Shown: positions 24,854 through 57,725, counted from the first letter of the stretch. The stretch is DNA of 64,000 nt from an uncultured delta proteobacterium (GCA_963727625.1 CAVSHR010000004.1:736001-800000); one strand, 5' to 3'. The notes: generated by a model not told the origin, from the letters alone. Translations and numbers: made by a program.

Positions 24854-25861
24854 TCATGACATGCCGCGCTGTGAGTTTCCAGGCGGTAGGTTTCCAAAAT
24901 CCTGGAGCCTCCCGTCGGGAGTTCTAACGACATGTTTTAGAGGCGCGCCCGAAAGATAACGTCGCGTGTTGTCGCGGATAAGTTCGCTCATCCGACGCCA
25001 CAATTCCGGCCCGCCCTGCCCGCCCACATGGGGTGTCATCAGCACGTTGGGGAGATCCCAGAGCGGACTCGCCACCGGCAATGGTTCTTGGGCGAAGGCG
25101 TCGAGGCCGGCCCCCATGATGCGCCCCTCGGTGAGAGCCCGTACCAGTGCCGCCTCATCCACCACCTTGCCTCGGGAAATGTTCACGAGGATCGCCGTCT
25201 CTTTCATGAGCGCGATCCTTTCGGCGCTCATGAATCCCCGGGTGACGCTGTCGAGCGGCATCGCCACCATCACCACGTCGGCAGTGGGAAGCACCTCGGC
25301 GACTTTTTCCCGGGACACCACACGGTCGATCTCGGGCGCGGCGGGGGCGGGTGCGCGGGTGACGCAGATCACCTCCATGTCGAATGCCTTAGCCTTTCGC
25401 GCGATGTCCTGACCGATGCGGCCCATGCCGAGAATCACCATGCGCGCTCCATCGGGCGCGGCCATGTGGTCGGACATGGCCTGCCGCGCCCAAACCCGTT
25501 GCGCGCGGCAGGCCTCGAACCGGTGAAAGCCGCGCATGACACCTAGCATCAGGGCGATGGCGTGGCCGGCCAGCACCCGCTGGCTGACGCCGCCGGAGTT
25601 CGTTACCCAGACACCGTCGGGCAGCCCCGCCCTCAACGCAACATCGATACCGACAGTGGTGAACTGGATCCACTTGAGAGCGCGCCCCTTGTCGCGCACC
25701 AGTTTCGCGAACTCGGGGGTGAAAGCGGAGTTGTAGACAACAAGGACTTCCGCGCCGTCGAGCGCTCCGGCCAGAGACTCCAAGCTATCGGCCTTGACTG
25801 CTTCGACCTCGGGAAATTCCTGCAGAAAGTCTTCGTCCACCACATCGTGAGTAGCGCGCAC
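24854..25861 (-). CDS. D-2-hydroxyacid dehydrogenase; 5' end possibly frameshifted
   Basis: ILGMGRIG, VNISRGKVVDE, GAGLDAF..EPLP, TPHVGG. Confidence 0.85.
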   Translation of the reverse strand: MRATHDVVDEDFLQEFPEVEAVKADSLESLAGALDGAEVLVVYNSAFTPEFAKLVRDKGRALKWIQFTTVGIDVALRAGLPDGVWVTNSGGVSQRVLAGHAIALMLGVMRGFHRFEACRAQRVWARQAMSDHMAAPDGARMVILGMGRIGQDIARKAKAFDMEVICVTRAPAPAAPEIDRVVSREKVAEVLPTADVVMVAMPLDSVTRGFMSAERIALMKETAILVNISRGKVVDEAALVRALTEGRIMGAGLDAFAQEPLPVASPLWDLPNVLMTPHVGGQGGPELWRRMSELIRDNTRRYLSGAPLKHVVRTPDGRLQDFGNLPPGNSQRGMS

Positions 25862-26175
25862 AACTGGGCAACACGAACTGTCACGCCGTCCCTTTCTGAC
25901 CTAGGCACGCCGATGCGCGCGGTCGCGGATAAGAATTTTAAGCACCACTTTTTTCTAACTGGAGGTTTATCGACAAACCCTTGGGTCGTCGGGCGGCACA
26001 ACCTTAATCTCCAAGATAGCCTTAGGATTTCCTTAACACGCCTGCCAAGCGACCAAATTCTTTCATCGTCCGATAGAGCTGTCAAACAAACTAGCCGCAA
26101 ATCCTTCCGGCCACGTTAGATCAAATCGATAGCCCAAAGATTACACACCTACTGGAAATACCGCGTGTGATTATT

Positions 26176-26862: not shown

Positions 26863-26930
26863 GCTTAACAAACGGCTTGAGACGGATCTTCGGACCCGCT
26901 CGCTTCGCTCGCCAGTCTTCGTCCGTTCAG
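26863..26930 (+). mobile_element. Truncated attC-like site
   Basis: GCTTAAC-aaac-GGCTTGAGA...CGCTCGCTTCGCTCG...; closely resembles the attC at 55864 but has lost R'. Confidence 0.65.
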
Positions 26931-27200
26931 AGAAGGGAAACGATTGAAGGTCCAAGGCGTGGTTGCGCAGAGGTTGGTTCAATTTCGCGTTACAACGGAC
27001 AATTGCACTGATTTCCCTAACTGTCCGATACCGAGAAAGGCGACCAGTAAGTGTTACGGCTACGACACCAAACACGACGCAGCCCGGTCGCGTACGGACT
27101 TCTTATTCCTGCCATCGCTTGACGTAAGCACCACTCGGTAAAGATTTGAATTTACCGCCGCCAGCCCATATGATTTCTCCTCGATTGGAGAAAAACATCT

Positions 27201-28658
27201 ATGGACACGATTCGATTTGTCGATACCACGATTCGTGACGGGCATCAGAGTTTGTGGGCGGAAAATATGACCACGGGCATGATGCTGCCGATCGCCAAGA
27301 ATTTGGACGACGCGGGATTTGAAGGCATCGAGCTGATCTCGGGATCGCATCTTAAAAAAACCGTGCGCGAACTCAGAGAAGATCCCTGGGAGCGCGTGCG
27401 GCTGGTGTCGAAAATTATCACCAAGACGCCGCTCAGGCTCATCGCCGGCCGGGTGAATACATTTGAATACAATCCGCCCGCCATGTACCGGCTGTTCGTC
27501 GAGCGCATGGCCGCCAACGGCATCCGCGAGGCGCGCATCTCGGACGAGTGGAACGATTACGAAGGCTGGAAGTTCCGCGTCGGCGAATGCCATAGAGCCG
27601 GTCTCAAATCGATTTTGAATCTGATCTATTCAGTGTCGCCCAAGCATAGCGACGAATACTTCGCCGACCGCACGCGCCAGGCGGCGTCCCTCAAACCCTA
27701 TCGCCTCTGCCTCAAAGACCCCGGCGGTTTGCTCACGCCGGAGCGCATGGAGACTCTGGTGCCGATCATTTTCAAGAATGCCAACGGAGTTCCGGTCGAG
27801 CTGCATACCCATTGCACCACCGGATTAGGTCCGCTTTGCTGCATCAAGGCCATGGAGCTCGGCATCCGCTCGATCAACACGGCGCTGCCGCCGCTGGCCG
27901 ACGATTCCTCGAATCCGTCTCTGTTCAACGTCGCAAAGAACGCCCGCGCGCTCGGTTACGCCACGGCCATCGACGAAGAGCTCTTACAGCCGGTTTCGCG
28001 CCATTTCACCGCCATCGCCAAGCGCGAAGGCTTCACCATCGGTGCGCCGGTGGAGTACGACTACAGCCAGTACCAGCATCAAGTTCCGGGCGGCATGTTG
28101 TCGAATCTACGCTTCCAACTGCGCAAGGTCGGCCTGGAAGATAGATTTCCCGAGGCCCTGGAAGAAACCATCCGCGTTCGCGCCGAGTTCGGCTATCCGA
28201 TCATGGTGACGCCCTTGTCGCAGTTCGTCGGCAGCCAGGCGGCGATCAACGTCATCGTCGGCGAGCGCTACAAAGAAGTGACGGACCAGGTAATCAAATT
28301 CGCCCTCGGCCATGCCGGCGCCGAAGGCGCGCGCGATATGGATCCAAACGTGAAAGACAAAATCTTAAACCGGCCGCGCGCCAAGGAGTGGGCAAAATGG
28401 ACGCCCGACAAACCGACGCCCGATGAGATGCGCCGTCGGCTGGGCGCGGAAGGGACTTCGGACGAAGAGCTGCTGCTGCGCTGGATCGTCGGCAAGGACG
28501 ATATCGACGCCATGCGCGCCAATCCGCGGCCGCTGGAATATTTGAACTCCGAGCAGCCGCTGGTCAATCTCTTGCAGGAGTTATCCAAGCGCACCAAGAA
28601 CCGCCAGATTCATGTTCAGACACCGGGATTTTCGGTAACGCTGGAACGCCGCGCATAG
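27201..28658 (+). CDS. Pyruvate/oxaloacetate carboxyltransferase-family subunit (PycB/OadA-like, no biotinyl domain), paralog 1
   Basis: DTTIRDGHQS, LCLKDPGG, ELHTHCTTG, HQVPGGM, GYPIMVTPLSQFVG. Confidence 0.9.
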   Translation: MDTIRFVDTTIRDGHQSLWAENMTTGMMLPIAKNLDDAGFEGIELISGSHLKKTVRELREDPWERVRLVSKIITKTPLRLIAGRVNTFEYNPPAMYRLFVERMAANGIREARISDEWNDYEGWKFRVGECHRAGLKSILNLIYSVSPKHSDEYFADRTRQAASLKPYRLCLKDPGGLLTPERMETLVPIIFKNANGVPVELHTHCTTGLGPLCCIKAMELGIRSINTALPPLADDSSNPSLFNVAKNARALGYATAIDEELLQPVSRHFTAIAKREGFTIGAPVEYDYSQYQHQVPGGMLSNLRFQLRKVGLEDRFPEALEETIRVRAEFGYPIMVTPLSQFVGSQAAINVIVGERYKEVTDQVIKFALGHAGAEGARDMDPNVKDKILNRPRAKEWAKWTPDKPTPDEMRRRLGAEGTSDEELLLRWIVGKDDIDAMRANPRPLEYLNSEQPLVNLLQELSKRTKNRQIHVQTPGFSVTLERRA

Positions 28659-47805: not shown

Positions 47806-49089
47806 ATGGCTCTCGATCAGGAATTGGCAAATAAAGTCATCGATCAAATCGACCGCGACGAATTGGCTCGGCTCGGCTGCGATCTCACCGGCATCCCGAG
47901 CCCCACTGGCCAGGAAAAAGCGATCGGCGAATTCATTTTGAGCTGGTTCGAGTCCAACGGCATCAAAGCGGTCAGACAAGACGTCGAATTCGACCGGCCC
48001 AACGCCGTCGGGGTGGTCAAAGGCGACGGCACAGGGTTGAGCCTCGGCTTCAACGGCCATACGGATACGAGTTTCACCGGCACCGAGGAAGACCGCCGCA
48101 TGGTCGCCGACATGGAGCCCGAGTCGGAGCTCAAGGGAAAGATCGTCGGCGATAAAGTTCGAGGCCTCGGCATCTCCAACATGAAGGGCGGCGTCGCGGC
48201 GTTCATGATCGCCGGCAAGGCGCTCAAAAAATGCGGCGTGAAGTTGAAAGGCGACGTGGTTCTCGCCGCCGTGGTCGGCGAGATCTCGCGCACCCCCGTG
48301 GGCCCCTGGCAGACCAAGGAATATCGCGGCGAAGGCGCCGGCACGCGCCATCTGTTGACCCACGGCATGCATTCGGACTACGCGGTCTGCTGCGACGGCT
48401 CCGACATGAACATCGTCTGGACCCAGAACGGCGTCGTGCAGGTGAAGATTCAAACCTTCGGCAAGGCCGAGGCCGCCTGGGGCTCCAATCGCGAAACCCA
48501 TCCGATGGTAAAGATGAACGCCATCGTCAAAATGACCAAGATCATCGACGCCATCGAGCGCTGGGGCGCGGAGTTCGAAGCGAAATATGTTTACCAATCC
48601 CCCACCGGCCCGCTCTATCCCAAGGTCAACATCGGCGGCATCGAAGGCGGCGCGCCCTACCGGCCCAACTACTATCCCGGCGTCTGCTCGATCTACGTCG
48701 ACATTCGCATGCCGCCGCAAATCCGGCCGGTGCAGATCCAGCACGAGCTGGAAAAGAGGTTGAATGCGACCGGCCTCGAATACCAAATGGATATTTACAA
48801 ATCGTTGCTCGGCCACGAGGGCAAGAACGTCGAGCCGTTGGTCAAGTCGGCCGAAGAGGTTTTCCAGCATCTGTTCGGCGCCAATATCAAGCACGAAGCT
48901 CCCGACCGCGCCAGCATCTGGACGGACACCAACGTGTACAACGAGCTCGGCATCCCCGCGATCAAGATCGGCCCGCGCGGCCGCCGCATCGGCCCGCGCA
49001 ACGAGGAAATCGAGATCGAGACGATGGTCGACGCGGCGAAGCTCTACGCGCTCATGGCGCTCGATATCTGCACGAGGCCAAGAGCCTAG
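47806..49089 (+). CDS. M20/ArgE-DapE family metallo-amidohydrolase
   Basis: SPTGQE, FNGHTDT, GLG..NMKGG, VVGE. Confidence 0.85.
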   Translation: MALDQELANKVIDQIDRDELARLGCDLTGIPSPTGQEKAIGEFILSWFESNGIKAVRQDVEFDRPNAVGVVKGDGTGLSLGFNGHTDTSFTGTEEDRRMVADMEPESELKGKIVGDKVRGLGISNMKGGVAAFMIAGKALKKCGVKLKGDVVLAAVVGEISRTPVGPWQTKEYRGEGAGTRHLLTHGMHSDYAVCCDGSDMNIVWTQNGVVQVKIQTFGKAEAAWGSNRETHPMVKMNAIVKMTKIIDAIERWGAEFEAKYVYQSPTGPLYPKVNIGGIEGGAPYRPNYYPGVCSIYVDIRMPPQIRPVQIQHELEKRLNATGLEYQMDIYKSLLGHEGKNVEPLVKSAEEVFQHLFGANIKHEAPDRASIWTDTNVYNELGIPAIKIGPRGRRIGPRNEEIEIETMVDAAKLYALMALDICTRPRA

Positions 49090-49300
49090 TAGTAAAGGAG
49101 TTCGCAGTCCGGCTGACCTCTTAGAATCTGGACGGCTAAAATAATACTATGCCGTCCCCATACGCAGCCTTCTGCAGCCGAGAAAGAGATGTGGAATGGG
49201 ATCGTAAGCGTATGACATATCGAGAAAATTGCTGCTGTCGCAAGAATCTAATCGAGCAGTGTTATACCGACCGGCATATTCATAGTTTGAGCATACTACT

Positions 49301-49328
49301 TTGACACGGCATAAATTTTGGCTATAAT
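49301..49328 (+). promoter_or_regulatory. Consensus sigma70 promoter of the TA module with an overlapping operator-like inverted repeat
   Basis: TTGACA-N16-TATAAT; TGGCTA-taatc-TGGCCA spans the -10; the ATG is 9 nt after the -10. Confidence 0.8.
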
Positions 49329-49337
49329 CTGGCCAGA

Positions 49338-49631
49338 ATGCGCTTTGAGATCATTTTGGCTCCGGAGGCGGTGGAAGATTTTCGCGCTTTGAAGGCCAAT
49401 GTTCGATCGACCGTCCGCGATGCTCTTGAAACGCATCTTCGGCACGAACCCATGAAATCGAGCCGGAGCCGGATCAAGCGGCTGCGAGGCCTGGCGCGAC
49501 CACAGTATCGACTTCGTATCGGTGAGGTTCGAATATTTTACGACGTATTAGCCGAGTCCGTTGAGGTCTTGGCTATCGTGCCCAAATCGGAGGCGGCAAT
49601 ATGGCGGGAGCAGTTCGGAAAGCCCGAATAA
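49338..49631 (+). CDS. Type II toxin, RelE/ParE family
   Basis: I.LAPEA.ED, IKRLRG, YRLRIGEVRIFYDV. Confidence 0.9.
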   Translation: MRFEIILAPEAVEDFRALKANVRSTVRDALETHLRHEPMKSSRSRIKRLRGLARPQYRLRIGEVRIFYDVLAESVEVLAIVPKSEAAIWREQFGKPE

Positions 49632-49873
49632 AAGAAGTCCCTTTATCTGAGATCAAAGACGATCTTTCACGATTTCTGCGTGAGGCGGAGAAGCAGGAGA
49701 TTGTCATAACTCGGCACGGAAAGGCTGCCGGTGTCTTGATCGGATTCGAGTCAGAGGACGACTGGTTTGACTATCGGCTTGAGAACGACTCGCGTTTCCT
49801 CGAGCGGGTCGAACGGGCTCGAAGAAGCTTAAAAGCCGGGCGGGGTATCCGGTTAGAAGATATGCCGAAGTAA
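49601..49873 (+). CDS. Type II antitoxin, Phd/YefM family
   Basis: LSEIK..LS..L..AE..EIVITRHGKAAGVL; overlaps the toxin 3' end. Confidence 0.9.
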   Translation: MAGAVRKARIKEVPLSEIKDDLSRFLREAEKQEIVITRHGKAAGVLIGFESEDDWFDYRLENDSRFLERVERARRSLKAGRGIRLEDMPK

Positions 49874-50101
49874 GCGAGTGTTCTAACCGGCGGCTTGATA
49901 AAGCCGCTTCGCGCTTCTTAGCCTTCGCGCTGCTCGTTCCCGTGGCTAAAAGTCTTGCCAAACAACAGCGTATTGACGACCGATCTTTGGCGTAGTCGTC
50001 CAGCGAGCGCAGACAAACCGCTTAGGGACTTGCTTCCGCACGTTCCTAGGCTCCGCGCTATACTTGAGAACGCTCGGCGCGGTCAGGTGCGCGAAATTTC
50101 T

Positions 50102-50160
50102 GGCTAACCATCGGGTGGAAATGTCGCGCCAAACCGTGCCTCTCACCCAAAACGTTCGGC
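50102..50160 (+). mobile_element. attC site (59 bp)
   Basis: R'' GGCTAAC, inner arms GGGTG(G)A / TCACCC, R' GTTCGGC. Confidence 0.75.
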
Positions 50161-50222
50161 CGCACATCGCCCGAGTGACACAACCTCGCTTTCGTTACGG
50201 AGTTCAGAACAAAGGAGAATTT

Positions 50223-50798
50223 ATGTCACGCATTCGCCCTACAAAGTTCGCCCATGTTGTTTACCGCACGCGCCGTTTCGAGCAGATGGTGCATTGGTAT
50301 GAGACCGTGTTCGACGCCAAGGTCCAGTACCAGAACCCCGTGCTGGCATTCTTGACCTACGACGACGAACACCACCGCATTGCGTTGATCAACCTGTCGG
50401 TGCTTCAGCCGGACGGTACCGAAACCGAGCGTCATGGCTTGATCGGTGTCGACCACGTGGCGTACACGTATGCGTCTTTGAACGACCTGTTCGAAAATTA
50501 TGTGCAGCTCAAGGAGAAGGGAATCCGGCCGTACTGGTGTGTCCATCACGGTATCACGGTGTCGATGTACTACGCCGATCCTGACGGCAATCAGATGGAA
50601 TTTCAGATCGATAGCTATGGGTCGAGTGAAGAGGCCAATGCCTTTATCAACGGGCATTTCACGGTCAATCCCGTTGGCGTTGAGTATGACCCCGAAGATT
50701 GGCTGGTCCGGCTGCGGGCCGGAACACCGGTGTCGGACTTTCTGGTGCGCCGGGTTCACGAACCGGTGTCCCCGGTACGGGGATCGATCGCAGGTTAG
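50223..50798 (+). CDS. VOC family protein (BphC-like single module), cassette-borne
   Basis: FAHVVYRT, FLTYDDEHHRIA, DHVAYTY, HG.T.SMYYADPDGNQME; AAGGAG RBS. Confidence 0.88.
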   Translation: MSRIRPTKFAHVVYRTRRFEQMVHWYETVFDAKVQYQNPVLAFLTYDDEHHRIALINLSVLQPDGTETERHGLIGVDHVAYTYASLNDLFENYVQLKEKGIRPYWCVHHGITVSMYYADPDGNQMEFQIDSYGSSEEANAFINGHFTVNPVGVEYDPEDWLVRLRAGTPVSDFLVRRVHEPVSPVRGSIAG

Positions 50799-50916
50799 TC
50801 GCGGCGAGTTGACGGCGGCTGCTCAATCGGGCTGGTTGCGTTGGTCCACGCTGCCGTTGTCGCCGTTTCATCCGCCTGAGACTCTGCGCTGTAAAGGTTT
50901 CGATTCCGAAGGCCCA

Positions 50917-51010
50917 GCCGAACAAGCGAATCAACCGGAGCGCACGCAGCTTAGTCCGTCTGCCACTGCATGGTAACTTCGCGCGCGCCCGATTATCCTT
51001 GTCGTTACAC
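50917..51010 (+). mobile_element. attC site
   Basis: R'' GCCGAAC, arms CGGAGCGCACGC / GCGCGCGCCCG, R' GTTACAC, 4 nt before the next ATG. Confidence 0.7.
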
Positions 51011-51014
51011 CTCC

Positions 51015-51446
51015 ATGAAAAGTTACAAAATAGCGTTTTTGACAAGTGTAATTTTGATGTCCCTGCCAAGTGCGATGCTGGTTGTGGTTGGCGTAGTGAA
51101 TCTCAGCGCTTCGCACATCCTTTTTTGGGCAGGGATGCTGTTTCTGCCTTGGTTGGTGTATAGGAATCTGGTTCGGGAAGCTAAGCGGTCTTTTGGCGTT
51201 AGTTTTCTGCTCATTAACTTGCTTTGGTGGCCGTTGCTGGCGAGAACCGTGCAACGAGTAATTTTTGCCGTAGAAAATGGGGGCATAGAACGAGCTGACG
51301 GATACGGCTCGCCGCTCGCGTTCCTGATCGGCATGATAGGTGAACAAGCTTATTTCCTTCCAATGACGGTTACATTATTATTCGGTTGCAGGGTGCTTTT
51401 GACATCTAACAACCGACTCGATGAGCCGCAAAAACCGCACGCTTGA
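51015..51446 (+). CDS. Cassette-borne 4-TM membrane protein
   Basis: Starts just after an attC core; its 3' end runs through a degenerate attC (ATCTAAC, encoding SNNRL). Confidence 0.6.
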   Translation: MKSYKIAFLTSVILMSLPSAMLVVVGVVNLSASHILFWAGMLFLPWLVYRNLVREAKRSFGVSFLLINLLWWPLLARTVQRVIFAVENGGIERADGYGSPLAFLIGMIGEQAYFLPMTVTLLFGCRVLLTSNNRLDEPQKPHA

Positions 51447-51669
51447 GTTGATTCATCGTACTGCAAAGAGCAAATCGAACCGCACGATCCCGTACCAAGA
51501 CTGAAGTAAAGCCGTCAAACCTCGATCCCGCGCTCGCCGAATCGCGCAATATCATGAAGCTCTATGCCGCGATGCTCTCAAACCAGATTAATCCAACCAT
51601 GAGTATGAACGTAAGATCGACTCGCCGCGATTATTCTGTTCGCAACTTCAGTCTTAACCACTCGACGGC

Positions 51670-52056
51670 ATGAAACGAAATCGCAAGGCACTTGGGTTGT
51701 TGATGATCGGCGTTTTTCTTGGCATGGCGATCTGGTTTTTCTCGCCCTGGCTTACCGGGAAGGTCGAACCCTGGGACTCGGACGCGCCGATTTGGTCTCT
51801 GTCTTGGTTGGTGGTCGCGCTTTTCGGCGGCGTCACGGGCCATGTTTGCGGCGTGTGCTTGCCGATCGGTTACGCGCTGGGCCGGATGCTGGTCACAATC
51901 CGGTCTGTCTTCTTTGGGCCGTTTGGAGCATTGGGCTGGCTGTTCATAGCAGGCTATGCGATGGCTGCTGTAATTGTCACGTTGGCTCTTGTCGGTGCAA
52001 CGACAACGCTAAAATGGGCTTGGCGCACGCGGAGCGGCAAGGTCGTTGGCGTGTAA
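51670..52056 (+). CDS. Cassette-type membrane protein
   Basis: Four hydrophobic helices; EPWD motif. Confidence 0.6.
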   Translation: MKRNRKALGLLMIGVFLGMAIWFFSPWLTGKVEPWDSDAPIWSLSWLVVALFGGVTGHVCGVCLPIGYALGRMLVTIRSVFFGPFGALGWLFIAGYAMAAVIVTLALVGATTTLKWAWRTRSGKVVGV

Positions 52057-52211
52057 TTCCTCCATCGAACCAAGGTTTTAAAATATTCAACCCCCGAGTA
52101 GAATGGCCGACAAATCATTGTTATCGTAAGTGCTCAACCACCCGTACCAAACCGACCAAAATGTTCTAAATTAGTTCCGATTTTTTGTCGACCAACTATT
52201 AAGGAGGACTC

Positions 52212-52664
52212 ATGTTTCGTTCCCTGCCCTTTCTATTAGCGTCGCTCTTAACAGTATAATCAGCGGCCTTTGGCGCCGATGGTCTGATCTCGGTCAAGAG
52301 CCCCTTTCCAGTGAAAGAAACGATGAACCGGTTCGAGCAATTAGCCAAGAAACGCGGTCTCAATATCTTCGCGCGTGTCGACCACGCAGCCGGCGCGGCA
52401 AAGGTGGGCAAGACGTTGCGGCCCACGGAGGTAATCATCTTCGGTAATCCGCAAGGCGGCACGCCATTCATGGAATGCGCGCAGTCCGTCGGCATCGATC
52501 TGCCGCTCAAGGCGCTTGTCTGGGAGGACGCTCAGGGTCAGGTGTGGCTCGGCTACAACGACCCGGCGTTCCTGGCTAAGCGTCATGGCGCGCCTCAGTG
52601 TCCTGCGGTGGGCGGTTTGACCAAGGCGTTGGCCGGTCTTGCTAAGGCGACGATTGCTCGATGA
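52212..52664 (+). pseudogene. DUF302 family gene with an in-frame TAA in the signal peptide
   Basis: AAGGAGG RBS; MFRSLPFLLASLLTV*SAAFGADGL... continues in frame into ARVDHA, IFGNP.GGTP, GIDLPLK. Confidence 0.8.
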
Positions 52665-52845
52665 GCCGAGAACGCAGGCTACATTACTTCGAGGGATTCG
52701 CACGGGTAGGGCCTGCAGGGAGCGAGCAATTCGTAGAGAGGATCGAAAGGTTAACGGGCCGTCAGCTGGGGATGCGAAAAGCAGGGCGTCCACTTAAGCG
52801 CACCTCGTAAGAAATTGGAATTGTGTCCCCGGAATACCCGTGTAG

Positions 52846-53301
52846 ATGATGAAAGCACACATCTTGCTTGTCCAGTTGGCTTTGGTCGCCTGTTTGCCGG
52901 CATATGTAGCTTCCGCGCAACCGGACTCGTGCGAGTACTTTTTCTCGGCTTTGAGATCAGTTCCACACGAAAAGTTAACCCGCATTGAAGGAGCGCACAA
53001 GTCTCTTTGGGATGGAAAGAAGTATACTGGATGCGAGGTTAAGTTCGTAACCAACGACAAATTGCTTTCTGGCAGAAGGGTCCCAGATTTTGATCCTATT
53101 AAAGACTCAGAGATGCATCGTAAGGGCTGGCGGATGAACAACTCGTTTGTGGCCGATGGACCAGGTACAGGTGTATTTGGAATCGAAAAAGAGTCTGTTC
53201 TATGCCTTGTCAGGCATGAGCAACCAGCCCATCTGGATGATCACGGCAATATTATGCAAAGCGAGACGCTGAGTGTTACGGTTCAATGTAGGTACAGGTA
53301 A
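52846..53301 (+). CDS. Cassette-borne secreted hypothetical protein
   Basis: Signal peptide, Cys residues, ADGP.G motif; followed immediately by an attC. Confidence 0.7.
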   Translation: MMKAHILLVQLALVACLPAYVASAQPDSCEYFFSALRSVPHEKLTRIEGAHKSLWDGKKYTGCEVKFVTNDKLLSGRRVPDFDPIKDSEMHRKGWRMNNSFVADGPGTGVFGIEKESVLCLVRHEQPAHLDDHGNIMQSETLSVTVQCRYR

Positions 53302-53302
53302 A

Positions 53303-53382
53303 GCATAACCCTTGGCTTGAGACAGACCCTCGTCCCGCCACTTGATGGGCGGGGACCCCGCTTCTCAGCCTGAACGTTAGAT
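53303..53382 (+). mobile_element. attC site
   Basis: R'' GCATAAC, L arms GGCT(T)GAGA / TCTCAGCC, R' GTTAGAT. Confidence 0.85.
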
Positions 53383-53440
53383 ATCGAGGGTTCTCAGCGT
53401 CGTGGTTGGTAGGTAGCAAAACTAGAACCGGAGGGAAGGA

Positions 53441-53638
53441 ATGTCTTCTCGCGCCTATCTGGTCATCTCTGGTGTCATCTTCGGAATTGTCGCAGTTCTT
53501 CATTTGCTTCGCCTTGTCAACGGCTGGGCGTTAGAGCTCGGTCCGTGGTCCGCGCCAATATGGCTGTCTTGGTTGGGCGCGGTGGTTCCGGCTCTTCTCT
53601 GCATCTGGGCCTTTCGTTTGGCAAGACAATCGCTTTGA
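53441..53638 (+). CDS. Small two-TM membrane protein
   Basis: IF.IVA.LHLLRL..GW...GP...P.W.SW; GGAGG RBS. Confidence 0.7.
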   Translation: MSSRAYLVISGVIFGIVAVLHLLRLVNGWALELGPWSAPIWLSWLGAVVPALLCIWAFRLARQSL

Positions 53639-53752
53639 GAATGGATTGCGGGTGAGGTACGATTAGCCCGTTTCGCGGGCGCTTGAGCCCGGAAATTACG
53701 GCGGTGTGGGCCGCTGATTAAGCTAACGTTAGAACTCTACCGCCTGTATGCC

Positions 53753-54223
53753 ATGATCTCGATCGACATTCCCGGCTTCCGCAAGCTTGAGCTGGCACAC
53801 CTCGTATCTGACTACAACGGCACACTGGCTCTCGACGGCAAACTGTTGCCTGGCGTTGCGGAGGCACTGTCCGACCTCGCACCCAAACTTCACATTCACG
53901 TCATCACAGCGGACACCTTCGGCTTTGCCAAGGCACAACTCGCAGCGCTTCCTGTTAAGCTGAAAATCATACCGGTCGAATCGCAAGCCGAGGCTAAACT
54001 GCAGTTTTTGTCCGAATTGGGAGCCGATACGGTCGTTGCCATCGGCAATGGCCGCAACGATCGCAAAATGTTGAAGGCCGCCGCCCTGGGCATCGCCCTC
54101 GTTCAAACCGAAGGCGGCGCGGCAGAAACTCTCGCAAGCGCCGATGTCGCCAGCACGAGCATCCTCGACGCGCTGGAGCTTCTGCGCAATCCAAAGCGCC
54201 TCGTCGCCACGCTGAGATCATGA
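53753..54223 (+). CDS. HAD-family soluble P-type-ATPase-like phosphatase
   Basis: DYNGTL, TADTFG, AIGNGRND..ML; preceded by a GTTAGAA core at 53728. Confidence 0.9.
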   Translation: MISIDIPGFRKLELAHLVSDYNGTLALDGKLLPGVAEALSDLAPKLHIHVITADTFGFAKAQLAALPVKLKIIPVESQAEAKLQFLSELGADTVVAIGNGRNDRKMLKAAALGIALVQTEGGAAETLASADVASTSILDALELLRNPKRLVATLRS

Positions 54224-54409
54224 AATGGTAAGTCTCAGCCGCTTGATAGACGAGAAAGATCCGAATTGTCTCAGACGCCTGTGATAGCGGTTGAAACTCT
54301 TCGCTGCTCGAAAATGTGGTTTGCCCACGTGGTGATGTCGCTTGACCGACCTGCCTATTTAGGAATATAGGTTGCAAAACCTCCGGAGACATGGTCGAGG
54401 AAAACGCCC

Positions 54410-54586
54410 ATGGCAAATCCCACCGAAAGACTTTCTTCTCACCTCTCCAGCCGTGCCGGCACCGGAGCAATTCCCGCGCTCAGCGTTCCGGTATGGACGG
54501 CGCAAGAACTGCTTGGGCACCGCCATGTGGACACCACGATGATATACACGCATATTCTAAACCGCGGTGGCAAAGGGGTTCAATGA
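54410..54586 (+). pseudogene. intI: Integron integrase remnant (box II / C-terminus only)
   Basis: ...[29 protein letters not shown] matches the IntI consensus TVQELLGHxDVxTTMIYTHVLNRGGxGV. Confidence 0.85.
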
Positions 54587-55029
54587 AGAAACTCCTCATC
54601 TTGGCGCTCGCCGCAATTGGCGCGGCCACAATTCTCGGTGGCGTAGCGTTTTTCGTTTTTGGCCCGGGGTTTCTGTATTTTGGTATGGCTGGTGGGTCCG
54701 ACTACAAAATTGAGAAGACCGTGCCTTCACCGAGCGGCGCGTATGTAGCGACGCTTTACACTGGCATGGGCGGCGGTGCGGCTGGATCGTGCTCTCAAGT
54801 TATCTCGATCAATACCGTCTCCGAACCACTTTCTTTAGAAGTGGAGAAGAGTTCGGGGCAATACCAGGTATTTCGCGCCAGTTGCAGCGCTAAGGTCACC
54901 TTTCAATGGCTCTCGAATTCAGCCCTTCAGATCGGCTTCGCTGGAACAGACCAAGGCGGTCTGTCCCTTTACTTAAAGCCAATGGATTACTCCGGTCAAG
55001 TCACCTTCGAGTATAGCCTTGGCGCCTAA
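54583..55029 (+). CDS. Cassette-borne membrane-anchored hypothetical protein
   Basis: MKKLLIL N-terminal TM; SPSG.Y.A motif; the stop codon lies in the attC R'' (GCCTAAC). Confidence 0.7.
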
Positions 55030-55149
55030 CCAATCGCTCCACCGTGCCGGTTCAGCGCTAGTCAGCGCGCGCGTCCGTGCGTACTCGACAGTTTGCGCCG
55101 GCCGCGCGCCTCGAACGTTGCCACCGGCCGGTGAGCTCAATCGTTCGCC
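55024..55149 (+). mobile_element. attC site
   Basis: R'' GCCTAAC, arms GCTC(C)ACCG / CGGTGAGC, R' GTTCGCC. Confidence 0.85.
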
Positions 55150-55155
55150 CGCTAA

Positions 55156-55860
55156 ATGGACACGCTAGACACCATAGTTTTAGCATTCCAGGTTGTGTTC
55201 TACGGGATTGGTTTAGCTCTTCTGATCGGAATTGTTCTGGCATGGCGAAGACGTTCGCGAGTTGTGTTCATCAGCCTTATAGTCGGAATAGTTTTCTACT
55301 ATGCCGGCGGACTCGAAATATCGGCTCTGCCTGGATCCACTCAGTACCAGCATCTTCGGATGGCGTGGATGCTGGTGGGTCGTCCCTTCCTACTCGGTTC
55401 ACCTGTGTTCGCTTTCGACTCTGAACGTGCGTTCAATGGAGACGGATATTCGATTTATCGGTACAATCTTCCAGCGTCGATCGCGGAAGGCTTGCAGCGG
55501 CCGCCCGAAACGTTTTTCACGACGCTTCCCAAGAAGCCTTCGTACCGTTCGGAGTGGAAAACGAAATATTGGCGTCGTACACCCGTCGATCAGAGTGAGC
55601 AGGAGTTCGTGCAGTTTGCAGCGCCCATGGGAAATTTTTCCAATGGGATGAGAAGTGAACCGGGGTTTGTGGAGCTTGGTGATGCGGCGAGAAGAGAAGC
55701 CGAATTTTTGCAACAGCTTCTTCGCGAAGAGGATAACTACTACGCTTATTTTTATTTTATGGCGGGTCCGTGGAACGGTATTACTTGGCCCGGGGATATC
55801 GATTTTTTCGTTTTAAATCCACGGAGGCGAGTGCTCTACGTCATTAACAACAACACCTGA
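55156..55860 (+). CDS. Cassette-borne membrane-anchored hypothetical protein
   Basis: Two N-terminal TM helices; fills the space between two attC sites. Confidence 0.75.
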   Translation: MDTLDTIVLAFQVVFYGIGLALLIGIVLAWRRRSRVVFISLIVGIVFYYAGGLEISALPGSTQYQHLRMAWMLVGRPFLLGSPVFAFDSERAFNGDGYSIYRYNLPASIAEGLQRPPETFFTTLPKKPSYRSEWKTKYWRRTPVDQSEQEFVQFAAPMGNFSNGMRSEPGFVELGDAARREAEFLQQLLREEDNYYAYFYFMAGPWNGITWPGDIDFFVLNPRRRVLYVINNNT

Positions 55861-55863
55861 ACG

Positions 55864-55944
55864 GGCTAACAACCGGCTTGAGAAGGGTCTTCGACCCGCT
55901 CGGTACACTCGCTGGTCTCGCCCTCTCAGCCTGAATCGTTCGCC
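55864..55944 (+). mobile_element. attC site
   Basis: R'' GGCTAAC, arms GGCT(T)GAGA / TCTCAGCC, R' GTTCGCC. Confidence 0.85.
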
Positions 55945-56000
55945 CGACCTCAGATGGTCGTGCGAACGGGTCGGCGGAATTAATACGAGAGGAGAAATAC

Positions 56001-56369
56001 ATGATAGAACACACCCTCGACGCTGAGAATTCCATTCTGTATCTTCGACCAAAGTCCGCGCTCGCGCGAGACGACTTCGTGCAACTCGCGAAAGCGGTTG
56101 ACCCATACATTGAGAAAACCGGGGGACTCGACGGTCTAATCATTGAGGCTACTACGTTTCCCGGATGGGAGAGTCTTGGAGCAATGGCGGCCCACCTCCG
56201 CTTCGTGCGAGATCATCACAAGCGTATCAAGAAGATTGGCCTCGTAACCGATTCTGCCTTGGGAAATGTCGCAGAACATCTGGCATCACACTTTGTGTCA
56301 GCCGAGATCAGGCATTTTTCTGCGGGGGAGATTGAGGCTGCAAAGCAATGGATCATGGACCGCAGTTGA
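56001..56369 (+). CDS. SpoIIAA-like (STAS/SEC14) protein
   Basis: L...DF, FPGWE, H.RF..DHH..IKKI..VTD, F......A..WI; GAGGAG RBS. Confidence 0.85.
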   Translation: MIEHTLDAENSILYLRPKSALARDDFVQLAKAVDPYIEKTGGLDGLIIEATTFPGWESLGAMAAHLRFVRDHHKRIKKIGLVTDSALGNVAEHLASHFVSAEIRHFSAGEIEAAKQWIMDRS

Positions 56370-56372
56370 TTC

Positions 56373-56442
56373 GCCTAACACGACGCTCCACCCGCCTGCT
56401 CACCGCTACGCGGTTCGCAGCGGGTAAGCTTAGTCGCTACGC
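56373..56442 (+). mobile_element. Terminal attC site with a mutated core (GCT instead of GTT)
   Basis: R'' GCCTAAC, arms GCTCCACCCGC / GCGGGTAAGC, R' GCTACGC. Confidence 0.7.
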
Positions 56443-56465
56443 TTGGACCGGATGTCCCAACGAAC

Positions 56466-57725
56466 TCAGCAAGCCTTCCGCAGTGCACGTGGTCGGGAAA
56501 TTTTGCTCGACAAGATAACTGGAACCACCCCATCGATATACATAAAAAACCGCCCTACGGCTTGATGATCAGCGACGACTGCTCTTCTTCCTTCTTCTGC
56601 CTTTTCCTGCGACATGAAGTAAGCGAAGCTCTTCTGCACAAGGCCGGTGAGAAAAGACACGTCGAGCGGGCCGGGGTCGCCTTCGCCGACTTGCAAACCG
56701 ACGGCAAGGGAGAGCTTCGCCTGCTCCGGCCGCTGGGTTTCGAAGAAATAGAGCGCCATGTCTTCCATGCGCCGCTTGAAAGCCTTGCCGTTGTCCCCGC
56801 TGCAAAGCGCTTTAACCGCTTCGCGCACGATGGCGGATAGGCGCTCTTCTTTTTGCAGCGGATTGAGCACCAGCCGGCTGGTCTGCGCTTCTTGGATCTG
56901 CGGCAAATAGGCTTGGACCCAGTCGTCGGTCAAAATCCAGTAGCGCAGCTCGGGCTCGTCGAGCAGGCGGCGCGACAGTTCCCGCCAGGCGCCGTCGCGC
57001 GCTTCTTCCGCGGCTAACTTTTCATAGATCGGGTGGCTGACCTCTTTGGGCTTGCCGGTGGCGATGACCGAGCGAATCTCGTGAAAGTTTTCCAGGCCGC
57101 TCTGGCCGCGCGCCTTGGCGTGCTCGTAGCCCTCGTACATTATTTGATCGGCGTATTCCCAGGGAATCGAGATCATGCTGACTTCATGTTGCCGCTTGAT
57201 CTCGTCGGCCATATTGCGCAGCTCTTTGCGCCGCATCTGCATGCCGCCGACGCGCAGCAATCCTTCACGGTCATGCAGCATCGCTTGAATGACTCGTAAT
57301 CCATGGCTCGGCTGCGCCCTGGCGATCCAGATCAGCCGCCCGCCGCCGCCGTCCACCGCCGACATATAGGCTTCGATCTCCGGGCCATGGCTAAATAGCG
57401 GCGCGGCGGATGTCGCTTCACCCGCCGCAGGCTGGGGCACCGCGAAGCCGCGCTGCGCCAATTTAAAAAGTGCGCGCTTGATTTCTTTCTTGATCTCCTT
57501 GCCGGCCATCTGCCGCTCGATCTCGCCGAGCGCCTGCACCGCTGCCGCATCAGCGATTTTACCCAATGAAAATACCACCGCCAGATCCGTTTCCCGGCCC
57601 TTGCCCAACTGTTCCCGCAGTCTAGCGACGAGGGTCGGGGAGTCGGCAGCGAAGTCCACGCCTGCTTTGGCGAGCTCGTCCATGCCGCGGCGGATCGTCT
57701 CGTCGATATTTTTCTTCTTGGCCAA
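56466..57725 (-). CDS. Hypothetical protein with an N-terminal HEAT-like segment; C-terminus probably frameshifted
   Basis: LGKI...A..AL, KEIKRALFKL, S.VDG.G.R; an alternate frame gives ...SSLIIKP* ending at 56555. Confidence 0.7.
   Translation of the reverse strand: MAKKKNIDETIRRGMDELAKAGVDFAADSPTLVARLREQLGKGRETDLAVVFSLGKIADAAAVQALGEIERQMAGKEIKKEIKRALFKLAQRGFAVPQPAAGEATSAAPLFSHGPEIEAYMSAVDGGGGRLIWIARAQPSHGLRVIQAMLHDREGLLRVGGMQMRRKELRNMADEIKRQHEVSMISIPWEYADQIMYEGYEHAKARGQSGLENFHEIRSVIATGKPKEVSHPIYEKLAAEEARDGAWRELSRRLLDEPELRYWILTDDWVQAYLPQIQEAQTSRLVLNPLQKEERLSAIVREAVKALCSGDNGKAFKRRMEDMALYFFETQRPEQAKLSLAVGLQVGEGDPGPLDVSFLTGLVQKSFAYFMSQEKAEEGRRAVVADHQAVGRFFMYIDGVVPVILSSKISRPRALRKAC

Follow-up and report, generated by a model that had tools for sequence, protein, structure and literature searches.

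Where does a cluster of attC recombination sites come from when no integrase stands beside it? The question is raised by a stretch of 64,000 nucleotides (nt) from an uncultured delta proteobacterium (GCA_963727625.1, CAVSHR010000004.1:736001-800000), here called the window, which belongs to a genome of 6.6 Mb in 15 contigs (G000; with its contig abbreviated to C4, the window is C4:736001-800000). In it, between a gene for an M20 peptidase and a convergent open reading frame (ORF) of 419 amino acids (aa), a 7.3-kb run of short + strand ORFs is found, which a first, sequence-only reading had taken for an unannotated integron cassette array, similar to a cluster of attC sites lacking integron-integrases (CALIN) and by now immobilised. 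That interpretation is right in kind and incomplete: the array is of a known type of integron, in which integrase and cassettes are co-oriented, and it is very probably what is left of one or more chromosomal integrons, probably two in tandem, that decayed between two convergent housekeeping genes. The locus is a decayed complete integron and not an attC cluster of unknown origin, because a putative attachment site (attI) and two remnants of the integrase gene (intI) are still contained in it. Positions are those of the window unless a contig is named.

Integrase remnants and the putative attachment site

The pieces of the integrase platform are the following:

49094-49144, + strand: integrase remnant 1, the last 16 codons and the stop of intI (KGVRSPADLLESGRLK, then the stop)
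49145-49285, + strand: attI region, proposed crossover G49285/T49286 (CATAG/TT)
54298-54586, + strand: integrase remnant 2, the intI promoter and 5′ region, then a 58-codon ORF (54410-54586)

The homology of remnant 1 begins at 49092, 2 nt past the M20 stop, and its first 16 nt are all identical (16/16) to the 3′ end of intI in a congeneric, unpublished genome (G005), where a 398-aa intI ORF follows the M20 gene directly and on the same strand. The motif GVRSP.D of this remnant recurs at the C-terminus of the one intact IntI of G000, called here the resident integrase. The alignment with G005 continues past the gene, in such a way that 49092-49287 corresponds to the last 50 nt of intI and 145 nt downstream, ending exactly at CATAGTT. 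To the left of CATAGTT the two genomes are homologous, and to the right G000 has a toxin-antitoxin cassette; in another genome of the genus (G012), an 88% identical copy of this cassette, with attC on both sides, turns homologous at the same GTT, to the left of which G012 has an attC. The region 49145-49285, which among the 30 other genomes of the genus is shared with G005 only, can be read as an attI with its first-position cassette, which is the classical signature, and it would have served as such in recombination.

Remnant 2 is composed of two pieces of the G005 gene: 54298-54489 corresponds to the promoter, the 5′ leader and the first 25 or so codons, and 54503-54581 to the 3′ part, with 82% identity. 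Its ORF joins these first codons to about 31 conserved codons of the end, some 288 codons being deleted in frame, and at the 3′ end it is cut at GGGG/TTC, where its stop overlaps the ATG of the next ORF. By tblastn it falls on residues 340-370 of the resident IntI and on residues 19-80 and 357-387 of the G005 IntI; independently of G005, it matches positions 280-309 of the integrase model TIGR02249 with an expectation value (E) of 3.6e-9. This match inside the array covers 30 residues (54494-54583) and scores 34-36 bits against a cut-off of 265. The search with the TIGR02249 profile found no intact intI in the window, so that the locus lacks the integrase of a complete integron; as the first reading implied, there is no working integrase here, only remnants of 16 and 58 codons.

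The attC sites of the array

The canonical attC of mobile integrons, such as that of aadA7, extends from R″ (RYYYAAC) to R′ (GTTRRRY), and the extra base of its L″ is C on the top strand. The sites studied here have the same layout, that is, R″, a 5-nt spacer, an 8-nt L″ with the extra base, the centre, a 7-nt L′, a 5-7-nt spacer and R′, and likewise a stop codon inside R″ in some cases; they differ in that R′ is of the form GTTCGSC, with C at the fourth position, in 3 of the 6 sites of the array and in 3 of the 9 beside the resident integrase, and in that the extra base of L″ is T in two sites.

Covariance models were trained solely on attC sites outside the window: R1, from a seed of four near-identical sites whose R/L structure was set by hand, and R2, from 12 non-window sites aligned by R1, most of them beside the one intact intI. 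R2 was searched against the whole window with filters off, giving 28 matches at E ≤ 10, and a second time within 49000-56600. All six attC sites that had been proposed were recovered with identical coordinates, on the + strand and at full model length, with the following E in window and region:

50102-50160, + strand: attC, 2.1e-4 (window), 2.5e-5 (region)
50917-51010, + strand: attC candidate, 5.2 (window), 0.61 (region), which is noise level; bottom strand pairs end to end
53303-53382, + strand: attC, 2.8e-6 (window), 3e-7 (region); R′ end GTTAGAT
55024-55149, + strand: attC, 0.42 (window), 0.05 (region); L box with one bulged base
55864-55944, + strand: attC, the best site, 6e-13 (window), 7e-14 (region)
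56373-56442, + strand: terminal attC candidate, 6.7 (window), 0.79 (region), which is noise level; bottom-strand fold end to end, z -2.2

The R and L boxes and the single bulged base are in register in the cmsearch alignments, and the pairing is found also in the bottom-strand folds. On sequence grounds the model supports four of the six sites, while those at 50917 and 56373 seem plausible through position and pairing alone; in the latter the R′ core, at 56436, is GCT in place of GTT. The four supported sites, with region E from 7e-14 to 0.05, provide the cassettes and attC that a complete integron has. The stop codons had been placed in or beside R″, and five of the six are: two lie inside it (the TAA of GSCTAAC, 50105 and 55027) and three 2-4 nt before, the sixth being 118 nt away; start codons follow 5-63 nt beyond R′, as had also been noticed. 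With regard to the four further sites described as eroded (49881, 51404, 52749-52813 and 53728), R2 supports none, its best match being 49769-49935 with E 6.8, and only the one near 49881 is backed in another way, by the G012 cassette that ends in an attC.

The several GTTCG cores that had been remarked upon are those of R′ at 50154, 55143 and 55938, all GTTCGSC, which pairs with an R″ of GSCGAAC or mismatches GSCTAAC. These cores are a normal variant of the attC family of this organism and not a product of erosion, because the same variant adjoins the intact intI in the resident integron. The site at 55864 is 84-91% identical to sites in the resident integron and in six other genomes of the genus.

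Other approaches to the sites were abandoned: folding stability, as the z-scores failed to separate model-supported from unsupported sites (of the bottom-strand folds that had been suggested, those of the sites at 50917 and 56373 pair end to end); a scanner for the R/L-box pattern, too permissive with 51 matches on the + and 67 on the - strand of the window; and whole-site MAFFT alignments as a basis for the model, in which L boxes were misplaced and RNAalifold recovered just 5 R-box pairs.

The resident integron

The search for an intact intI elsewhere in the genome, proposed with the first reading, was successful. G000 contains one, at C4:370957-371898 on the - strand (TIGR02249, 467.8 bits against the cut-off of 265), about 413 kb from the array, and nine attC sites, read by eye, lie downstream of it on the same strand. 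In these, R″ is GSCTAAC or GSCGAAC, followed by the 5-nt spacer, the 8-nt L″ with its extra base, a variable centre, the 7-nt L′ and a 5-7-nt spacer, and the R′ cores are GTTAGGC (three times), GTTAGAC, GTTAGGG, GTTGGCC, GTTCGCA, GTTCGGC and GTTCGCC. Upstream of the resident intI, on its own strand, there are further attC matches (C4:376053-378277, - strand; E 1e-7, 0.05, 0.12 and 0.4), with HigA-like and HicB-like ORFs between them, and in this way the resident intI, too, has co-oriented arrays on both sides.

Across the genome R1 found 12 sites at E < 0.001, 3 of them in the window. Scattered attC were matched by R1 on C4 at 849901-849960 (E 2.8e-5), 850960-851024 (2e-4) and 1358084-1358164 (2.5e-27), and on other contigs at C11:65984-66064 (3e-18) and C5:614853-614935 (0.41), and a regular expression added C4:1358798-1358882; with 150 of 4286 first-look candidates scored, this list is a lower bound. 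Within the window and outside the array there is one more, at 26863-26931 on the + strand (R2 E 7.8e-8, R1 E 1.5e-12), with a weak second match nearby (26081-26121, E 1.7), in a stretch of 1.3 kb that has no convincing gene and extends from a dehydrogenase-like ORF (24854-25861, - strand) to an ORF of 485 aa (27201-28658, + strand); it looks like a solitary or degraded cassette.

The insertion site in related genomes

In three genomes of the same genus (G013, G014 and G004) the site is empty: the stops of the M20 and 419-aa genes are some 100-200 nt apart, and synteny continues on both sides. R2 gave no attC at E ≤ 1 at the M20/419-aa loci of G004, G005, G006, G007, G013, G014 and G017, and two weak matches at that of G008 (E 0.29 and 0.74). 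Judged by these alignments, the array block is to be regarded as an insertion between the two genes. In comparisons that are all between species, G005 alone has an integrase platform at this site, which is empty in G013, G014 and G004 and otherwise occupied in G017 and G006.

A DNA search with the whole array did not find the same gene order in any of the 30 other genomes of the genus, in which seven cargo ORFs also had no DNA match; what recurs on other contigs are single cassettes, some of them flanked by attC, such as the toxin-antitoxin pair (88% in G012, 88% and 80% in G005). On a different contig of G005, with ordinary chromosomal surroundings, the intI 5′ region is present a second time in diverged form. 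The sequence-only reading had asked for a covariance model and for relatives, and had named as contrary outcomes the lack of model matches and a gene order fixed in relatives; model matches exist, the site is empty in three relatives, and there is no conservation of the block. The reading as a cassette array is upheld both by the matches of R2 to the proposed sites and by cassettes that are attC-flanked in other genomes.

At the same spot G017 (C46:296001-306500) has a different insert of about 3.1 kb, without attC matches, bounded by duplicates of the 3′ ends of both genes, 188 nt from M20 and 367 nt from the 419-aa gene, and in G006 (C330:1-3816) the M20 gene is followed by an NTF2-like ORF of 135 aa and a homolog of a hydrolase gene of the array, after which the contig runs out without an attC match or an intI. 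The spot seems to be an insertion hotspot. Elsewhere in the genus, intI is represented by a near full-length gene with a frame change in G015 (C213); in G032 (C34) by some 90 aa of its C-terminus, which include a frame change and have a co-oriented attC downstream; and in G008 (C39) by a C-terminal fragment with which a contig starts and which two co-oriented attC matches follow.

Seven runs of public reads contain at most 8% of the sampled words, and four were assembled onto the stretch. The resulting contigs fit it over their full length, and some bridge the junctions M20/remnant 1, attI/first cassette and the right end with 0-3 differences; the reads may include the source sample and hence are not independent support.

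Orientation of integrase and cassettes

The + strand carries both remnants as well as all attC; one part of the array (sub-array A, 49286-54297) comes after remnant 1 and attI, the other (sub-array B, 54582-56442) after remnant 2, and the resident intI is likewise co-oriented with its attC sites. The intI on the same strand as the attC and upstream of them is the arrangement of the inverted integron-integrase, to which the locus belongs. This co-oriented arrangement has already been described (PMC4889954, PMC3607928), and the group is called paraphyletic in PMC4889954.

In 80 loci with relatives of the resident IntI (55-77% identity), labelled as metagenome-assembled genomes (MAGs) of Acidobacteriota, Binatia, Elusimicrobiota, Eisenbacteria, Planctomycetia and others, R2 at E ≤ 0.01 matched attC in 12. 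In 9 of these 12 the attC lie downstream of intI on the same strand, and in 2, both labelled Betaproteobacteria, upstream on the opposite strand; from these sequences co-orientation appears to be typical of this IntI clade. The remaining locus, in a MAG, has two attC (E 3.6e-4 and 1.4e-3) upstream on the intI strand, a layout neither classical nor co-oriented.

A probable history of the locus and its alternatives

Two integron platforms, each in the order intI, attI, cassettes, would once have stood in tandem at the M20/419-aa site, and their cassettes would have entered singly, the IntI recombining a folded, single-stranded attC with attI. In the first platform, a deletion would have extended from the M20 stop into the last codons of intI, with attI and about eight cassette units being kept (49286-54297). 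The second would have retained its promoter and the 58-codon in-frame derivative of intI, while the end of the gene and attI were lost at a GTT, after which three cassettes follow; here the junction GGGG/TTCAAT could have been made by an integrase-mediated deletion between a secondary GTT in the gene and attI or an attC. The toxin-antitoxin cassette in first position may have driven transcription into the array from its own promoter, and its presence would have penalised the loss of the array. Once the local integrases had decayed, some attC would have eroded and some genes too, such as that of DUF302 with its in-frame stop.

Two platforms in tandem are favored, firstly, because no overlap would arise from one gene that an insertion had split, whereas the pieces 54503-54581 and 49092-49287 have 12 nt of the G005 gene in common, with differences at 2 of the 12, both third codon positions; and secondly, because of the second, diverged intI 5′-region copy of G005. 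The GTT at which remnant 2 is cut lies in its GGxGVRS codons, which in G005 and in remnant 1 read GTTCGCA, a sequence that also serves as an R′ core in the resident integron. Four attC are intact and belong to the family found in the resident integron, and it is therefore plausible that the intact IntI encoded some 413 kb away could still excise these four in trans. To call the array immobilised was therefore too strong, even if some of its cores are broken, for example the GCT at 56436.

A single ancestral integron would produce the present order if a segment made up of the intI 3′ end, attI and the cassettes of sub-array A had been excised by the integrase through secondary GTT sites and reinserted between the M20 gene and the intI promoter. 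The junction of remnant 2 with the first cassette of sub-array B lies at a GTT (GGGG/TTCAAT), the displaced piece begins 9 nt before a GTTCGCA identical to the resident R′ core, and all parts are in direct orientation, as this course of events would predict; however, a clean cut-and-paste leaves no overlap, let alone one of 12 nt with 2 differences, in remnant 1 the 9 nt that precede the GTT agree with intI rather than with the flank of M20, and the second, diverged copy in G005 indicates more than one intI lineage in the genus. We consider this version, although it is the main rival, unlikely. It is very improbable, moreover, that the locus is a true CALIN that never had an integrase of its own, into which a trans-acting IntI inserted cassettes at secondary sites, the intI-like pieces being due to chance or capture. 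Insertion outside att sites is the topic of a preprint (bioRxiv 10.1101/2022.09.11.507474) and single attC or small clusters do occur in the genome (26863 in the window, C4:849901-851024, C4:1358084, C11:65984 and elsewhere), which counts in its favor, yet remnant 2 preserves, in the order of a real intI, 192 nt of promoter and 5′ region and 79 nt of the 3′ coding part, and it matches TIGR02249 at E 3.6e-9; remnant 1 and the attI region are collinear with the end of the G005 intI, and G005 has an intact intI at this very position of the chromosome.

That there is no integron at all, and that an ordinary genomic island has palindromes which are repetitive extragenic palindrome (REP)-like repeats or terminators, we judge to be already refuted. 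The unremarkable folding z-scores, the several ORF junctions without attC and a fragment that is faintly transposase-like would agree with it, but a model derived from sites beside a bona fide IntI matches down to E 6e-13 with boxes and bulge in register, the homology to other genomes breaks exactly at GTT cores, terminator-like sites are not enriched (8 found against 9.8 expected), and an Rfam search of 48500-57000 had no match at E ≤ 1.

A number of points weigh against the decayed tandem integrons that we prefer, and they concern several of its supports. The two-platform history rests on an overlap of 12 nt with 2 differences. The attI, the N-terminal half of remnant 2 and the orthologous position all depend on one unpublished draft genome, G005, in which 143 nt separate the attI core from the end of the contig. 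R2 was trained on the attC family of G000 itself, hence is biased to similar sites, and a - strand decoy (52561-52638) reaches the score of the site at 50917, so that 2 of the 6 sites are no better than a decoy; at least 5 ORF junctions have no attC detectable by R2, and many cassette boundaries are therefore placed by inference. The bottom-strand DNA folds of 12 real or candidate sites give z from about +1.1 to -2.2, even for the best sites, and 68 of the 80 related IntI loci had no R2 match. Finally, no excision junction was found in the public reads, whose contigs of only 151-294 nt, at a depth of 2-6, are uninformative on excision.

A further possibility, to which we give little credence, is that the integrase platform itself, promoter and intI, can move as a unit within arrays. 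Co-oriented attC arrays stand on both sides of the resident intI and likewise of remnant 2, and remnant 2 starts a few bases after an attC-like palindrome (54233-54294) ending in G/TTGAAA and ends at the GTT in its own GGxGVRSP codons. If the GTT in the gene works as a secondary site, an integrase could truncate its own gene and delete attI in a single step, and intI could travel like a cassette into another array; in other words, there would be a built-in route both to the loss of the integrase and to tandem integrons.

Cassettes and neighboring genes

The array contains 12 co-oriented cargo ORFs on the + strand, plus one integrase remnant ORF and one short fragment; about 11 had been counted, correctly as regards their common orientation. 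Six of the cargo proteins have a family (a ParE-like toxin, a Phd/YefM antitoxin, a glyoxalase/VOC protein, a DUF302 protein, a HAD-like hydrolase and a SpoIIAA-like protein), and for the 6 others Pfam and NCBIfam searches gave none, which bears out, for about half of the cargo, the statement that part of it has no recognised family. The lower G+C content reported for the array is real and small, 0.539 against 0.571 in the remaining window. The features of sub-array A are:

49286-49942, + strand: cassette A1, toxin-antitoxin, with a degenerate attC at about 49880-49942
49301-49328, + strand: A1 promoter (TTGACA, 16 nt, TATAAT), consensus match 12/12, kept in G012
49338-49631, + strand: ParE-like toxin of A1 (Pfam ParE_toxin E 8e-7, 30 bits against a cut-off of 23)
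49601-49873, + strand: Phd/YefM-like antitoxin of A1 (PhdYeFM_antitox E 2e-10, 40.8 bits against 29.8; TIGR01552 31 bits against 20.8)
49936-50160, + strand: cassette A2, without a convincing gene (an ORF of 50 aa lies at 49955-50107), terminated by attC 50102-50160
50155-51010, + strand: cassette A3, glyoxalase/VOC protein at 50223-50798 (Pfam Glyoxalase E 7e-10), with the attC candidate 50917-51010
51011-53382, + strand: fused or eroded cassette block, no attC between its ORFs by R2, ending in attC 53303-53382
51015-51446 and 51670-52056, + strand: membrane ORFs
52212-52664, + strand: DUF302 gene (DUF302 E 2e-23)
52661-52810, + strand: 49-aa ORF after the DUF302 gene, possible fragment of a transposase-like gene
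52846-53301, + strand: secreted-looking ORF
53441-53638, + strand: small membrane ORF, within the unit 53383-54297
53753-54223, + strand: HAD-like hydrolase (Pfam Hydrolase E 2e-5, under the cut-off; Hydrolase_3 22 bits against 20.9)

In A1 the toxin gene comes first and overlaps the antitoxin gene by 31 nt, and by its sequence the pair passes the family models for a type II toxin-antitoxin system (ParE/RelE with Phd/YefM). Its own attC has diverged from that of the G012 cassette and is missed by R2. A2 has a 79% homolog in G013 that spans 49933-50156 and ends in an attC. The A3 protein scored far under the cut-offs of the Fos-family models; its gene has homologs of 81-84% in G014 and G041 and of 67% in G018 and G037, and R2 places attC on both sides of it in G037 and none at the loci of G014 and G041. 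The DUF302 gene has a premature in-frame TAA at codon 16, within the signal peptide, and homologs of 69-76% in six genomes of the genus, the G017 copy with an attC directly downstream. The ORF at 52661-52810 resembles faintly, with 12 of 27 identities (E 2e-4 in one comparison), the C-terminus of a transposase-like ORF of 237 aa that lies at the distal end of the resident array, and its stretch has DNA matches in G012 and G017. The attC-like palindromes at about 53655-53734 and at 54233-54294 are not supported by R2; the HAD gene has a 75% homolog in G006, about 600 nt downstream of M20. Sub-array B and the flanking genes are as follows:

54582-55149, + strand: cassette B1, ORF 54583-55029 without Pfam or NCBIfam match, attC 55024-55149 with the stop codon inside R″
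55144-55944, + strand: cassette B2, ORF 55156-55860 of 234 aa without family, ending in attC 55864-55944
55939-56442, + strand: cassette B3, SpoIIAA-like protein at 56001-56369 (Pfam E 1e-15), terminal attC 56373-56442
47806-49089, + strand: M20 peptidase gene (Pfam Peptidase_M20)
56466-57725, - strand: 419-aa ORF, the right-hand convergent neighbor

The 234-aa protein of B2 has only look-alikes named 'hypothetical protein' in Protein Atlas, with scores of 0.90-0.93. At the 5′ end of B3 there is a hairpin (55937-55968) with a stem of 13 bp (CGTTCGCCCGACC ... GGTCGTGCGAACG), which starts at the R′ core of attC 55864-55944; some 40 nt of it are repeated at C4:366874-366913, directly after an attC of the resident integron and before a different cassette gene. 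These are its only 2 copies in G000, and G014 has DNA matches of 85-95% at four places. In the 419-aa gene, the homology to relatives ends at 56551-56557, where another frame reads ...SSLIIKP and stops as in the relatives, with a terminator-like hairpin (56563-56547) beyond it, while the ORF of G000 runs past this point, in a different reading frame, as far as 56466, which points either to a frameshift close to the C-terminus or to an ORF that was extended too far.

Comparison with known integrons

The sedentary chromosomal integrons of the inverted type, as in Treponema denticola, resemble the locus in having a lineage-specific attC family, a cargo mostly of unknown function and a toxin-antitoxin cassette. 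In contrast, here the integrase genes are destroyed, the array is short (about 11 cassette units), half of the attC are eroded, and the named relatives of the IntI are not spirochaetes, but MAGs of Acidobacteriota, Binatia, Elusimicrobiota and others.

A CALIN is defined by Cury et al. (2016, PMC4889954) as at least 2 clustered attC with no intI within 4 kb; according to the same source, 15 of 279 CALIN have an intI pseudogene nearby, and half of the CALIN come from genomes with an IntI elsewhere. With those CALIN that have an intI pseudogene nearby, the locus shares the presence of at least 2 attC, the lack of an intact intI within 4 kb and an IntI elsewhere in the genome: by our own covariance model 4-6 attC lie within 6.4 kb, with no intact intI in the window. 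It differs from a CALIN in that it also keeps a putative attI, and in that an ortholog of the platform is intact at the same chromosomal site in G005. The term CALIN-like was apt as far as a cluster of attC without intact intI is concerned, and fell short in view of the attI and the two intI remnants.

Significance

The origin of integrase-less attC clusters is an open question, on which this locus bears as a well-resolved example, since it combines integrase remnants, a putative attI, relatives with an empty site and an intact platform in another relative. In the survey of Cury et al. (2016, PMC4889954), which applies a criterion of 50% coverage, 95% of CALIN are without a recognisable intI pseudogene nearby. 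The remnants described here would escape that criterion, so decay may be under-counted. The R′ variant GTTCGSC is documented, moreover, in a co-oriented integron lineage outside Proteobacteria. As for the bacterium itself, this is the ordinary decay of integrons in an organism that keeps one working integron, and the current picture of integrons is left unchanged.

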